DNA of 64,000 bases, taken from a virus. The notes beneath the pieces were generated by a model. It saw nothing but the letters and a program-made list of their open reading frames with translations. It ran no database searches and had not been told where the DNA came from. Location: IMG/VR virus record IMGVR_UViG_3300045988_111421; one strand, given 5' to 3'. This document shows positions 31,361 through 52,240 of the stretch, piece after piece (the first letter of the stretch is position 1; each line of letters starts with the position of its first letter). A program made the translations under genes and the position numbers.

Positions 31361-31665
31361 CAATAGAACAACTAAATTATTTATTAAGAAAAGAGCTTTA
31401 TGCTATAAAAAACCATAAAGACAATATTGATAGAATCAAAAAAGAATATTTTGATTCCAATTATGGATTAAAAGAAGGAGATAAGATCCGTATTTTACAC
31501 GAAACAGGAGATGAAATGATAGGCTTCTTGAAAAAAGTTGAAGTATGTGAAGACGGAGATCTGTACTTGACAATCCAAAAACAAAACGAAAAAGGTGACA
31601 GAGGCAGAAGAACATGGAATATGTATCTATCATCAAAATCAATTAAAATTGAAAAATGTGTATAA
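31357..31665 (+). CDS. Hypothetical protein (102 aa).
   Basis: ORF. Confidence 0.5.
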   Translation: MTIEQLNYLLRKELYAIKNHKDNIDRIKKEYFDSNYGLKEGDKIRILHETGDEMIGFLKKVEVCEDGDLYLTIQKQNEKGDRGRRTWNMYLSSKSIKIEKCV

Positions 31666-31666
31666 T

Positions 31667-32795
31667 GCCATGAGAGTGTTAAGTTTATTTGACGGAATGT
31701 CATGTGGTCAAATAGCGTTAAAAGAAATAGGGATTACACCTGAAGTATATTATGCATCAGAAATAGATAAGTTTGCTATTAAACAAACGCAATTAAATTT
31801 CCCTAATACTATACAAGTAGGAGATGTAAGGGATTTGAATGTAGAAGATCTTGGACACATAGATCTTATTTTAGCCGGCAGCCCATGTACAGATATGTCC
31901 TTTTCTGGAAAAAGAAAAGGGTTGTCTACCGTAGAAGGAATAGAAATCAAATCACTTAATGAGTATCTTGAATTAAAAAAACAAGGATTTGAGTTTTCCG
32001 GTCAGTCTTACTTATTCTGGGAGTTTATCCGTATTTTGAATGATGTAAGAAAAACTAATCCCGATGTGTTGTTTCTTCTTGAGAACGTTAAGATGGGAAA
32101 GAAATGGGAGCCGGTATTTGATAATGCTATAGGGTGTAAAGGCAATCATATTAATTCAGCGCTTGTTTCCGCTCAAACCAGGAAACGTATTTATTGGACT
32201 AATATTCAAGGCGGCATTATCCCTCAGCCTAAAGACGAGGGTTTGACCATAAGTGATATATCTGAATATGAAGTAGATGAAAAATATTACTTATCTGAAA
32301 AAGTTTTAAACAATTTAGCTTTTCACTTGAAAAGAAATCACGACAAGGGGAATTATTATGGAGCTAATATTAAAACAAAAGATGAAAAATCCAATACTGT
32401 TACCGTAAAGGGTAAATACACGTACGATCTTATTTGTGTAGCAATGAGAGGTAGGAATCCAGAAAAACCTACATGTAGAGAATCTGGTCTCACAACAGTT
32501 CAGAAAGATAATCTTATTTTCCAAATACCAAGAGGATTTAACAAAGGTGGATTTCATGAAGATAAGGCTCCAACATTATCTTGTAATTCATATGATAGAA
32601 ACAATTTTATCATACAGAGAACATTACATGGCGATTTTCAGAATAAGAAGATTAACCCCTACAGCGTGCTCCAGGTTACAGACTGTACCAGATTGGTATA
32701 AATGGGAATGCAGCGAAACCCAACAGTACAAGATGTTGGGAAACGGGTGGACTATTAAAGTTATTGAACATATACTTAAAAGAATAAAAGAATAA
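31667..32795 (+). pseudogene. C5-cytosine DNA methyltransferase split by a +1 frame change near 32630-32650. Motifs I-VIII lie in ORF 31595..32701 and motifs IX-X in ORF 32547..32795.
   Basis: LFDGMSCG (motif I), GSPCTDMS (motif IV PC), ENVKM (motif VI) in frame 2. RRLTPTACSRLQTVPDWY and YKMLGNGWTIKV (motifs IX/X) in frame 3. Confidence 0.55.
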
Positions 32796-33337
32796 TGATT
32801 AGAGCAAGATTTTACATTAAAAAATCCGACTGCGATAACGACTACCGTCCAGTCAAATGGCCTATAAAATATCCATATTGGTGTAGTGGTGAATCCGATG
32901 ATTCATTCATACTTGTAGCGTATGCCGAAGACGAAGACAGCATAAAAGAGCTGTGGCCGGAAGCATACGATATTAATGTCTTAGAAAAAGATACTGAGGT
33001 TAAATTCACATTAAGATTTCCTAAGCCTAAATGGTATGAATTGCAAGAAGAGAGATTAGAAGAGTATGATAAATTATATGGTAAATTCGTATGGGTTACG
33101 GACATGTGTCTAAAAGATGGGAAAATAAGAAAGGTAAAAGCCAGAATAGAAGATTGTGGTGGTCTTTTATTAGCCGACACTCCTGGTCGTTACACCCCTT
33201 ATCAGATAGGGGATTGTGCTTTTGAAAGCAAGGAAGAGGCTTTAAAACATGCAGAGGAACAGAGAACGGATTTAATTAAGTCTCTTAAGTTACAAATACA
33301 CGAACTTGAAAATCTAAAATTTAAATGCGATGATTGA
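32795..33337 (+). CDS. Hypothetical protein (180 aa).
   Basis: ORF. Confidence 0.55.
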   Translation: MIRARFYIKKSDCDNDYRPVKWPIKYPYWCSGESDDSFILVAYAEDEDSIKELWPEAYDINVLEKDTEVKFTLRFPKPKWYELQEERLEEYDKLYGKFVWVTDMCLKDGKIRKVKARIEDCGGLLLADTPGRYTPYQIGDCAFESKEEALKHAEEQRTDLIKSLKLQIHELENLKFKCDD

Positions 33338-33390
33338 ATAATTTGATTATTTTACAAATAACGATTACATTTACGATATAAATCATTCAA

Positions 33391-34581
33391 ATGAGATTAG
33401 TTGAAAGGCATATAGTTAAAGACAACCGGTTTGAGGATATTTGCTTCAAATCCGGCTTGTTATATAATTATGTTCTTTACAACATTCGTCAAGGAATCTT
33501 TTCAGGTAACTATTTAAAGGAATTTGATTTATCAAACAAACTTTGCAAAGAAAACCAATTCGATTTCAGGAATTTACCTAATCATGTATCCCAACAGGTG
33601 ATTAAACAGGTATTTAAAAACATAAAATCCTGGATAAAACTCAAGAAGGATTTTGAAAAGAATCCTTCTAAATACGGAAATCATAGACCTCACCTTCCAT
33701 CATACAAACAAGGTAAGAAACAAAACATGGTTGTTTTCACCAACTGCAATTGTAGGGTAAAGGGTGATAATTGTATTTATTTTGTTAAAGATATAATCAA
33801 ACCTATCAAAACAAATGTAAAGAAAGACGAACTAAAACAAGTTAGAATAATCCCTCAAGCTACATGTTATGTAGTAGAGGTAGTTTATGAAAGAAAGGAA
33901 ACTGATCTTGGTTTAAACAAAGACAATTTTCTTTCGATTGATTTAGGATTGAATAATTTATGTTCATGTATTAGTAATGTAGAAACTAATTCTTTCATTA
34001 TAAACGGACGGGTTATGAAATCAGTAAATCAGTGATACAATAAGAAGAAAGCTAAGTTGATGTCTTTTATTGGTAATAAGGGAACTTCAAATAGAATAAG
34101 AAAAATTACTTTGTTTAGAAATTGTTGGATAGAAGACAAATTGCATAAAATCAGTAGATACATTGTAGACTTTTGTAAATCTAACAATATAGGAACAATC
34201 ATCATTGGATTAAACAAAGAATGGAAAAACGAGATAAATATCGGTAAAAGGAATAACCAACATTTTGTTTCTATTCCTCATTCTAAATTGATTGATAAGA
34301 TTGTTTACAAAGCAAATCTTTTAGGGATAGAGGTAATTACTCATGAGGAATCTTACACATCAAAGATTGACCATCTTGCTTTTGAACCTCTAAAGAAACA
34401 AGAATCCTATTTAGGGAAAAGAAAGAAACGTGGATTATTCCAAAGTTCCGTTGGAAAGCTAATTAATGCTGATATTAATGGAGCTATAGGAATAGCAAGA
34501 AAAGTAGTCGGTGATTCTTTCATTGGAAAGATAATCGATAGTGGATTTGTGTTTAATCCGGTTAGAATAAATATTTTGTGA
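33391..34581 (+). mobile_element. tnpB: IS200/IS605-family TnpB (OrfB) RuvC-like nuclease gene, with no tnpA. It is interrupted by a single in-frame TGA at 34033-34035. The Zn-finger cysteines are replaced (RGLFQSSVGKLINAD).
   Basis: RuvC-I SIDLGLNNL, RuvC-II HEESYTSKID, RuvC-III NADINGAIGIARK. Both ORF-track pieces (33391..34035, 34057..34581) are in the same frame. Confidence 0.75.
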
Positions 34582-34588
34582 TATAAGG

Positions 34589-35335
34589 TTGAATCTAATG
34601 AATAAAATGAATAATTTTAATAACATTAACTACGCAGCAAAAGCCAGAAGAGCTTATTTGATAAATAATTTCGATAAGATTCTTAACAGTCTTAACACGC
34701 TTCATTCAACGGTTGAGACCATGACATTGTTCGTAAACGACCAGGCTTATAATTACATTCTTAAGCTAAAGGAAGTAATTAAAACCAGTCCTATGTATAA
34801 GCACAATATCAAGCGTCTTTTAAATGACATGGACAAAGAGATAAAGAGGTACAATGCTTCTATCTACTACATAAATAAAGAGCGTAGTGAGGTTATAGCT
34901 GATATAACACAAGCGATGGAAGATTGCCTCATGCCATACATAGACGACCTGGCCGGCGCTATAAGGGCAGCCGTGTGGTCGAGGGGTGTGTCCGAGGAGC
35001 GGACGGAAGCGGCGGTACTGTCCCTAATCGTATCCTCCTTGGCCACGACATCAGGCAGACTTATTTCAGGTGGATATCAGATCATGAAAGAAATGGGTGG
35101 TGGATGGGGTGGTAATCCATTTACGTTTATGAGCATTGATAAGATAAGACACTTATCTACATCATTATCTGATGCTATTACCGGTGGAGAAATAGCTCTT
35201 GAAGAAAAAGAAGCCAATGACATAACTAAGGCAATGGATGTTTTTATTGAGAAAATGTCTGATTCGGATATTGTTGATAAGGTAATTAGCATACTCGAAG
35301 AGGCAGAATCTAAAAACAAGGAGGAGCGATCGTGA
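34589..35335 (+). CDS. Hypothetical protein (248 aa or fewer; the start is uncertain) with a GC-rich internal segment.
   Basis: ORF begins 8 nt after the TnpB stop. Confidence 0.45.
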   Translation: MNLMNKMNNFNNINYAAKARRAYLINNFDKILNSLNTLHSTVETMTLFVNDQAYNYILKLKEVIKTSPMYKHNIKRLLNDMDKEIKRYNASIYYINKERSEVIADITQAMEDCLMPYIDDLAGAIRAAVWSRGVSEERTEAAVLSLIVSSLATTSGRLISGGYQIMKEMGGGWGGNPFTFMSIDKIRHLSTSLSDAITGGEIALEEKEANDITKAMDVFIEKMSDSDIVDKVISILEEAESKNKEERS

Positions 35336-51562: not shown

Positions 51563-52240
51563 GGCTGAGTTTGTTTCCGATAAAATGGAAGGATTTTCAG
51601 TAAAAACGGAAATATAATATACAACGAGTAGTTTTCCCCATTTATGGGGAAAAATTGATAATCAGCAACTTTCGCTTTTCCTTTTTTGGGTAAAGCGCTG
51701 TAAATCAAAACAGGATCCGCATCACTGCGAATCCTGCCTCAACTAATCTAAACTAAAATACCATGAAAAACTTTTCCCTACTAAAACTAAAGAACGAACA
51801 AATGTATGAAAATACATGCTTTTCACAAAGAATCCGTATCCTGTTCTTTGGTATGGTTAAGTACATGGGATATAGTTCTGATACTTAATCCGGTTTGATT
51901 TTGTATCAGATTATAAATATAGGATTTTGAAACTACAGTTCTTAATTGACCTAAATCATTCATAATGTTTTTATACATAAGATGAATGCTGTTGTTACAT
52001 TTGATGGTACTGATTCTCATTTCCTACTGTTATTAGTTACGTTCGGTTCTTACTTTTCCCTATTTTCTATAATCCCTTCCTGAAACTAATATCGCAAACT
52101 TAACAAAAATAATTCATAAACAATGAAAATCTAACTTTTCTTGTATGTTATTGATATACGTACATATATGAGAAAAGTGAGACTTTCACAAGCCTCACTT
52201 TCCAAATCGTAATTATGAAAAAACTATATATATACAAAAA
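51563..52240. other. A 680-bp non-coding gap inside the - strand block. Contains hairpins TTTTCCCCA-TTTA-TGGGGAAAA, GGATCCGCA-TCAC-TGCGAATCC and AGTGAG-n12-CTCACT.
   Basis: No ORF over 66 codons in operon orientation. Inverted repeats read directly. Confidence 0.5.

Follow-up and report, generated by a model that had tools for sequence, protein, structure and literature searches.

It has been shown for the IS607-family element CboIStron of Clostridium botulinum that the transposon-adjacent motif (TAM) ends in a core dinucleotide which is repeated at the right-end tip, and mismatched left- and right-end dinucleotides were seen experimentally in the same study (PMC10690162). Homing by IS607/TnpB elements (PMC10690162), TnpB proteins without a zinc finger or with a rearranged RuvC-II (PMC10691335) and the presence of TnpB in epsilon crAss-like phages (PMC11054128) have already been described. 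Here, we analysed a tnpB gene that is interrupted by an in-frame TGA in a viral DNA stretch of 64,000 nucleotides (IMG/VR record IMGVR_UViG_3300045988_111421), the whole of which is called the window below. The gene is carried by a 1292-bp mobile element of the IS607 family, its stop codon goes back to a single recent G-to-A transition, and the copy is very probably a pseudogene.

The element resembles CboIStron in that its autonomous relatives encode a serine-recombinase TnpA with tnpB immediately downstream, in the overlap of an omega-RNA-like region with the tnpB 3' end and the right end, in the lack of a target-site duplication, in the dinucleotide shared by TAM and right-end tip (AT in the window, GG in CboIStron), with mismatched pairs at some sites, and in the proposed role of homing into empty sites. 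It differs from CboIStron in having no group I intron and an A/T-rich TAM-like motif (GATGAT, GATGGT, ATAGT) instead of TGGG, in a TnpB without a zinc finger and with glycine at the canonical RuvC-II position, and in residing in a lytic-type crAss-like phage replicon as a copy without tnpA and with a nonsense-mutated tnpB (PMC10690162). With the IS200/IS605 elements ISDra2 and IS608 it shares the TnpB fold family, a 3' omega-RNA for which the flank would serve as guide, a TAM 5' of the left end and the frequent occurrence of copies without TnpA. Unlike in that family, the partner of this lineage is a serine recombinase, with no Y1/HUH TnpA in the related loci fetched, and the window TnpB has NADIN instead of DRDxN at RuvC-III and no zinc finger.

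Over most of the window, identity with crAssE-Sib (OR575929; PMC11054128), a phage of the same lineage and the closest complete genome, is 92-98%; the host replicon is a gut epsilon crAss-like phage. TnpB 'transposases' are found in only some Epsilonunovirus genomes (PMC11054128). crAssE-Sib is empty at the window's insertion site and has two TnpB genes elsewhere, which are distant from the one studied here (a fragment aligns with about 66% DNA identity); the paper on that phage left the IS607 partner, the omega-RNA and the limits of the element undefined (PMC11054128).

The interrupted tnpB gene

A first-pass annotation, made from the letters of the window, had read two adjacent open reading frames (ORFs), 33391..34035 and 34057..34581, as a single TnpB of the IS605 OrfB type split only by the TGA at 34033-34035. 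Frame analysis and profile searches bore out the single gene. Both ORFs are in the same frame, the TGA (codon 215) is the sole intervening stop, and 33391..34581 forms one gene with a joined translation of 396 codons. This translation matched the Pfam profiles OrfB_IS605 (E=1.9e-17, 64 bits, cut-off 30.5) and Cas12f1-like_TNB (E=8.4e-8, 32.7 bits, cut-off 26.3), and a homologue 92% identical to it (P0001; loci and proteins are cited by our working numbers) scored 155 bits with the NCBIfam profile guided_TnpB (cut-off 100). A protein search returned thousands of homologues, and the best 120 were nearly all full-length (about 392-396 amino acids). The window gene is therefore TnpB, and its parts are as follows.

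33391..34032, plus strand: tnpB codons 1-214, the N-terminal part with RuvC-I; D184 is encoded at 33940-33942
34033..34035, plus strand: premature stop TGA at codon 215, from TGG (Trp) by G to A at 34035
34036..34581, plus strand: tnpB codons 216-396 and the TGA stop; E319/E320 are encoded at 34345-34350, and D361, in NADIN, at 34471-34473

Past the premature stop the frame is still open. A possible internal start, ATG 34060, lies 25 nt beyond the stop, and gene callers have recorded the 173-amino-acid C-terminal piece.

Origin of the stop codon

Codon 215 was compared among relatives of the window copy. Tryptophan occupies this position in 15 of 15 aligned homologues and is invariant in a 25-sequence alignment (A3). 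The DNA of L001-L004 has TGG at this codon, as do nine intact copies at the window's own insertion site and each of the 71 family copies from IMG/VR for which the motif was located. The nearest copies (L082, L089, L091 and L144) differ from the window element at only 2 of 1287 bases, namely at 34035, where G/A turns TGG into TGA, and at 34069, where G/A corresponds to Val227Ile (the window has Ile227). Since intact relatives, including those at the same site, have TGG and the nearest copies are only two bases away, the stop is a single recent G-to-A transition at 34035 in the codon for Trp215. The other three tryptophan codons of the window tnpB are TGG, and the gene itself ends in TGA.

Four explanations had been left standing by the first-pass annotation: a recent nonsense pseudogene, readthrough or suppression of the TGA, acquisition from a donor that recodes TGA, and a domesticated nuclease of the phage. 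Only the first is supported by the data. With high confidence, we regard the window tnpB as an ordinary loss-of-function allele, that is, a recent pseudogene in a decaying copy of an IS607-family element. The stop is in itself of little import: the gene should be annotated as a pseudogene and not taken as evidence for an alternative genetic code, and it illustrates that an in-frame TGA in a phage TnpB can mimic recoding or programmed readthrough.

Both differences between the window and the commonest intact haplotype (34035 and 34069) are G-to-A changes on the plus strand, 34 nt apart. The mutated G at 34035 lies in GTGGTAC, beside GTAC, and the phage encodes a C5-cytosine DNA methyltransferase (31595-32795, plus strand). 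A hotspot of 5-methylcytosine deamination at 34035 was considered but is no more than speculation. The methyltransferase gene of the window is itself split by a +1 frameshift around 32634-32637, where it has a run of four T versus three in crAssE-Sib, L170, L171 and L172; in relatives the gene is intact (392 amino acids), split elsewhere (L170) or absent (L168, L169).

Disrupted alleles in the population

The exact 214-amino-acid truncated product was found on 11 contigs from at least five independent samples (Logan, ENA), and the C-terminal piece of the window, with Ile227, on three JGI contigs, the longest of 150,603 bp. The TGA at codon 215 was seen at the DNA level in L168 and L171, on differing flanking haplotypes, while L169 has TAG in its place. 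In L170, tnpB has lost 122 bp between two direct repeats of AAATCAGT (L170 3601-3700; equivalent to 34026-34158 of the window), and this deletion creates a chance CAG-TAG and with it the same 214-amino-acid product. Other lesions at the same insertion site were a 1-bp deletion causing a frameshift (L025/L032), a 44-bp deletion (L041) and a 7-bp insertion (L149). The 90% identity cluster of this TnpB, with 1002 members, also holds fragments of 160 amino acids (26 contigs), 231 amino acids (7 contigs) and 336 amino acids, and C-terminal pieces of 139-167 amino acids. An intact protein identical to that of L082 is present on 498 contigs, and the truncation is a minority allele. The ratio of nonsynonymous to synonymous substitution rates (dN/dS) in the family is 0.05-0.14, which points to strong purifying selection on the intact TnpB family. 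Such a picture is typical of a selfish gene that is functional while single copies of it decay.

Some points weigh against a plain pseudogene. The convergence at codon 215 of TGA, TAG and a deletion on one product could hint at selection for it. We discount this since the contigs were retrieved by looking up exactly that product, so that the convergent routes reflect ascertainment, and since many other truncation points exist. The frame past the stop is open, but at 1-4 substitutions from the intact consensus this is uninformative about selection. The screen for suppressor tRNAs covered only the window and its closest complete relative. Lastly, low-level natural readthrough of UGA is possible, although we infer that readthrough at codon 215 is completely absent.

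The idea that truncation at codon 215 is selected appears improbable to us. In that case the 214-amino-acid N-terminal piece would function alone, for example by binding the omega-RNA as a nuclease-dead protein and thereby repressing or blocking homing, or together with the 173-amino-acid piece from ATG 34060 as a two-piece nuclease. It would account for three kinds of lesion leading to an identical product, for the TGA allele on several flanking haplotypes and for the ATG 25 nt past the stop. Apart from the ascertainment bias, it is opposed by the many other truncation lengths in the cluster, some of them on more contigs, by the large excess of intact over truncated alleles (a single intact sequence accounts for 498 contigs) and by the 122-bp deletion, which takes out part of the C-terminal piece. 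Moreover, two separate G-to-A transitions, which belong to the most frequent class of mutation, can each convert TGG into a stop.

We then considered readthrough or suppression of the TGA, in which full-length TnpB would still be made, for example with the help of a phage suppressor tRNA or of TGA-to-Trp recoding late in infection. Stop-codon recoding occurs in some other groups of crAss-like phages, the TGA falls exactly at a tryptophan codon, as recoding of the code-4 type would yield, and the downstream frame is intact. Against this, TGA terminates 22 of the 57 long ORFs in the window, tnpB itself among them, in line with the first-pass view that it serves as a stop in other genes; removing it from the stop set did not lengthen the large structural genes, and a genome-wide alternative code was rejected. 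The TGA at 34033 is the only one on the plus strand of the 64 kb with at least 120 open codons on each side, and the lone equivalent on the minus strand (about 49113) separates two genes that are annotated separately in crAssE-Sib; no other gene is split by TGA. The tRNA-like elements near 0.8 and 2.0 kb to which suppression had been tied were not recovered. ARAGORN found no tRNA in the window, and hence no suppressor with a UCA anticodon, an Rfam search of the window gave nothing at gathering thresholds, and the sole match at 0.8-2.0 kb was a Bacteroides small RNA at chance level (20 bits, cut-off 80). The six tRNAs of crAssE-Sib (Cys, Arg, Gln(ttg), Met, Tyr and Lys) include no suppressor. 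Together with TGG in all intact relatives and with the sister TAG and deletion alleles at the same place, which TGA recoding could not rescue, these results make readthrough or suppression quite improbable.

It is very unlikely that the TGA is a sequencing or assembly error for a genomic TGG: it is one base away from a very common intact haplotype, and the window also has the +1 T frameshift in a T-run of the methyltransferase gene, but separate assemblies of at least five samples (Logan, ENA and JGI data) yielded the exact truncated product, and the DNA of L168 and L171, whose flanking haplotypes differ, contains the TGA. Recent transfer of the gene from an organism or phage that recodes TGA (for example under code 4) has in its favour solely the position of the TGA at a tryptophan codon and can be given almost no weight, as hundreds of relatives in the same phage lineage have TGG at codon 215, the nearest copies are two bases away, the remaining tryptophan codons are TGG and the gene ends in TGA.

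Boundaries and spread of the mobile element

A survey of 80 IMG/VR loci (L005-L084), anchored on the gene downstream of tnpB, revealed a presence/absence polymorphism. The element was present in 12 loci and absent from the other 68, in which the flanks are joined directly (...GCGATGAT/TAAYTAYGC; a slash marks the junction). The boundaries deduced from this comparison are as follows.

33335..34626, plus strand: whole mobile element, 1292 bp, non-autonomous, with tnpB only; the junction is ambiguous by 3 nt (ATT)
33329..33334, plus strand: GATGAT of the left flank, candidate TAM, with the AT core dinucleotide as its last two bases and the original ATG of the downstream gene (33330-33332) inside it
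33335..33390, plus strand: left end with the 5' leader (TGAATAATTTGATTATTTTAC...); the left end is conserved in copies located elsewhere

The empty junction reads GATGAT/TAAC and the filled one GATGAT/TGAATAA...AACAT/TAAC, with AT at both and no duplication beyond the 3-nt ambiguity. GATGAT is present in the 68 empty alleles. An alternative left boundary that includes GATGRT, with the right end at ...AATAAC, was therefore rejected for the window. A KATRRT-type motif (GATGGT, ATAGT and similar) adjoins the left end at about 17 independent insertion sites, and by analogy with known elements GATGAT is a candidate TAM, its exact extent being tentative. At other sites the dinucleotides are GT/GT or mismatched GT/AT, and the right-end tip reads ...AACAT or ...AACGT.

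Copies of the element were also looked for elsewhere. Eighty further family copies have about 28 distinct right flanks, TnpB-only copies lie at about 20 further sites, and a 90% identical copy occupies a different site in L001-L004. At the window's own site, L018, L025 and L050 combine an element of 99.5-99.6% identity to that of the window with left flanks of only about 81% identity. Since a near-identical element sits on such divergent left flanks, it must have moved between phage backgrounds, by spread or by recombination. At three other insertion sites, scans with exact patterns detected no empty alleles, exact matching being too brittle at such divergence. A protein-anchored search at the site of L153 recovered 76 empty alleles, whose 5' ends are too divergent to fix the junction; they are only compatible with a TAM ATG that equals the native start (ATG GCT AAT GAT versus a reconstructed ATG GTG AGT GAT).

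The earlier suggestion of a phage-domesticated nuclease does not agree with a discrete 1292-bp element whose presence varies among near-identical phages and which is found at many sites besides. Nor does the element look like a domesticated TnpB such as a TldR-type guide-RNA repressor: the locus is polymorphic, the catalytic residues are kept family-wide and the truncation is a minority allele.

A second insertion site is unoccupied in the window.

51773..51783, minus strand: second insertion site, located by the Blast breakpoints of L001-L004 against the window

This site is filled by the 90% identical copy in L001-L004, L104 and L146, between a gene for a 752-amino-acid structural protein and the next gene. 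The window sequence at 51773-51783 has no good GATAGT-type motif.

The transposase partner in relatives

The first-pass annotation had noted that no HUH TnpA is adjacent to tnpB, and this held: no transposase gene adjoins tnpB or lies elsewhere in the 64-kb window, so that the window copy is non-autonomous. The partner was found in relatives. In seven loci (L151-L158), a 194-amino-acid ORF overlaps the start of a tnpB whose product is 77% identical to the window TnpB, and this ORF encodes a serine transposase (NCBIfam transpos_IS607, 167.7 bits, cut-off 110; Pfam Resolvase, 6.8e-20; HTH_17). The resulting autonomous element of 1.9 kb (positions about 852-2731; tnpA for example at 917-1498 of L153) is located in phage contigs of 90-155 kb and is more than 99% identical at six different sites, for which reason the transposition must be recent: the autonomous IS607-type element has been active recently. 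No HUH (Y1) TnpA was present in the window or in the related loci inspected, and a serine recombinase was the only transposase found beside this TnpB lineage. As relatives with a 77% identical TnpB carry an IS607-type serine transposase, the family is IS607 and not IS605/HUH, and the IS605 OrfB-type label given before has to be replaced. TnpB genes of epsilon crAss-like phages are thereby assigned to IS607.

In L156, the autonomous element lies directly upstream of another, unrelated TnpB-like ORF.

Catalytic residues and zinc finger

The RuvC motifs quoted before are all present, namely SIDLGLNNL (D184), HEESYTSKID (E319/E320) and NADINGAIGIARK (D361), and these residues are invariant in alignments of 16 and 25 sequences. 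The D...E...D residues of RuvC are kept across this family of copies; owing to the stop, the window copy cannot express RuvC-II and RuvC-III. The earlier reading of an intact catalytic triad stands as regards this invariance but not as regards the type of glutamate. The canonical RuvC-II glutamate position is Gly273 (TIIIGLNK versus TIQMEDL in Cas12f, in ungapped register), positions 277 and 281 are variable, and E319 and E320 in HEESYTS are invariant. Because the canonical position is a glycine, E319/E320 represent the 'alternative glutamate' arrangement known for rearranged TnpB clades (Altae-Tran et al. 2023, PMC10691335) and not a classical triad. RuvC-III of the window TnpB is NADIN, the 'derived' type of the same authors (PMC10691335).

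The loss of the zinc finger and its replacement by RGLFQSSVGK had likewise been reported correctly, except that it is no peculiarity of this copy. No Cys or His pairs exist between RuvC-II and RuvC-III of the window TnpB, and RGLFQSSxGK fills the zinc-finger stretch in all homologues aligned. The loss is thus a conserved trait of the whole family and not a lesion of the window copy, and it has been described before; as some large branches of TnpB have lost the C4 zinc finger (PMC10691335), its absence does not bar the protein from TnpB membership. Motif comparison, as distinct from a phylogeny, likens the window TnpB to the rearranged clades without a zinc finger (e.g. RIIr-5), which share the glycine at the canonical RuvC-II glutamate, an invariant alternative glutamate near a YTS motif, NADxN at RuvC-III and the lost zinc finger; such branches are reported to be common in viruses (PMC10691335).

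An AlphaFold2 model of P0001 from the 25-sequence alignment (all at least 77% identical) reached a mean predicted local distance difference test (pLDDT) score of 51 and a predicted template modelling (pTM) score of 0.32, too poor for a fold search, and a sequence search against solved structures gave only weak Cas12f/TnpB matches (E about 1e-4) over RuvC-II. The intact TnpB is presumably active as an RNA-guided, TAM-dependent nuclease, for which a conserved left-junction motif, the excess of polymorphism within the first 10 target nucleotides of empty alleles and the low dN/dS are indirect evidence, and the hundreds of natural intact variants are open to nuclease testing.

Omega-RNA and presumed guide

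An omega-RNA had been proposed at the 3' end of the gene (about 34450-34640). This proposal found support in covarying helices at 34437-34599, in a scaffold that ends at 34626 and in a presumed guide from 34627 onward.

34437..34626, plus strand: omega-RNA-like scaffold over the tnpB 3' end and the right end, with the tip ...TTTTAATAACAT
34437-41/34489-93, 34445-48/34481-84 and 34507-12/34534-39, plus strand: omega-RNA helices, from covariation
34516-21/34526-31, 34543-47/34555-59 and 34561-66/34594-99, plus strand: omega-RNA helices, from covariation
34627..34646, plus strand: presumed guide, equal to the target sequence (TAACTACGCAGCAAAAGCCA); it borders the right end and opens the body of the downstream gene

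The six helices are kept in 33 non-identical copies, in which 97.8% of the cells are paired (28-56% in slid controls), and changes on both sides of a pair occupy 53 cells of the 33-sequence alignment versus 16.9+/-4.9 in shuffles. The folding z-score of the region is -2.4. In the hairpin 34516-34531, CTTTC/GAAAG is replaced by pairs of the CGTGC/GCACG type, CATGT/ACATG, CCTAC/GTAGG and CTTAC/GTAAG, and these changes cost amino-acid changes in TnpB. Covariation at the expense of the protein is strong evidence for a constraint on the RNA. A search of the omega-RNA region against the Rfam families gave no match with E values of up to 1.

Conservation of the element stops at ...TTTTAATAACRT at about 28 different sites. 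As it does so at every site, the guide is presumed to begin at 34627, and in empty alleles the equivalent sequence lies directly 3' of GATGAT. Both position and length of the guide are putative, the position following the known architecture of TnpB/omega-RNA systems. The analysis provides exact boundaries, a candidate TAM and guide, and a covariation-backed omega-RNA for a compact (396 amino acids) TnpB without a zinc finger.

Insertion at a gene start

In empty alleles, the upstream ORF ends in GAT GAT TAA and overlaps the start of the downstream gene, ATG ATT AAY TAY GCR. In the filled allele, the first bases of the left end complete a TGA stop (33335-33337) for the upstream ORF 32795..33337 (GAT GAT TGA), and the right end reads ATG AAT AAA ATG AAT AAT TTT AAT AAC AT/T, in phase with the gene body (then AAC TAC GCA).

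34598..35335, plus strand: downstream phage gene, the start of which is now at an ATG inside the right end; gene callers give a 245-amino-acid product from there

The downstream protein would then begin with MNKMNNFNN-I-NYAAK... in place of the native M-I-NYAAK..., and the insertion appears to spare both neighbouring genes. This phase was also compared at other sites. At 15 of about 28 distinct sites, it runs from the right end into an ORF of 80 to more than 485 codons, versus only 2 sites for the other two phases (binomial P=4.5e-6; right ends of loci L088-L167, window 34589-34630). Right ends of the GT type put GTG directly at the junction. These data suggest that a gene deprived of its start codon by the insertion has its translation re-initiated by the element.

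Target sequences in empty alleles were found to be polymorphic. The first three wobble positions past the TAM (+4, +7 and +10, corresponding to window 34630, 34633 and 34636) have a heterozygosity of 0.50, 0.43 and 0.49, versus a mean of 0.064 over the next 187 wobble positions, and among 188 groups of three such positions this one ranks second. Identity with the major guide over the first 12 nt was limited to 5 of the 68 empty alleles. Polymorphism of the target seed may reflect escape from guide-directed cutting; it could also stem from linkage or population history.

Taken together, an ATG-containing TAM-like motif, left-end stops for the upstream gene and a right-end ATG or GTG with a short A/T-rich leader ORF in phase raise the tentative possibility, to which we give somewhat less than even weight, that this IS607 lineage is adapted to sit on phage gene starts without knocking the genes out, with re-initiation from inside the transposon, and that the wobble polymorphism is the trace of an arms race. 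If so, a lineage that spares start codons would be an intron-free counterpart of the IStrons, and an arms race by omega-RNA-guided cutting would be ongoing between co-infecting crAss-like phages. The in-frame leader suggests a simple route by which transposons could persist in densely packed phage genomes, and the right end that spares gene starts is one lead worth testing.

Proposed life cycle

We propose that intact TnpB, with D184, the alternative E319/E320 and D361 but no zinc finger, would bind the omega-RNA and take the flank past the right end as guide. The complex would cut unoccupied alleles, GATGAT followed by TAACTACGC..., in co-infecting or sister phage genomes; the predicted target of the intact allele is GATGAT plus TAACTACGCAGCAAAAGC. 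Recombinational repair would then copy the element into the cut allele, so that homing is the presumed mode of spread into empty alleles of a site, and new sites would be reached by means of the serine transposase TnpA of autonomous relatives. As for the window copy, the G-to-A change at 34035 has very probably inactivated TnpB, and the element survives by hitch-hiking in the phage; it could still be copied given intact TnpB in trans.

This scheme resembles the life cycle of homing-endonuclease genes (invasion, fixation, degeneration and loss) in the presence/absence polymorphism at one site, the near-identical copies on divergent flanks, the many independent lesions and the polymorphism concentrated in the recognition sequence of empty alleles. 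It differs in that recognition is proposed to rely on an RNA guide and a TAM instead of a protein, and homing itself is presumed. Filled, empty and decayed alleles at one site make up a natural population in which RNA-guided homing between phages can be studied.

Two proteins among the homologues (P0052 and P0091), TnpB sequences 78-79% identical to that of the window, are labelled Vibrio olivae by NCBI. The same sequences occur on gut-phage-like contigs of about 155 kb, and the labels are probably due to phage contamination or mis-assignment in the assembly.

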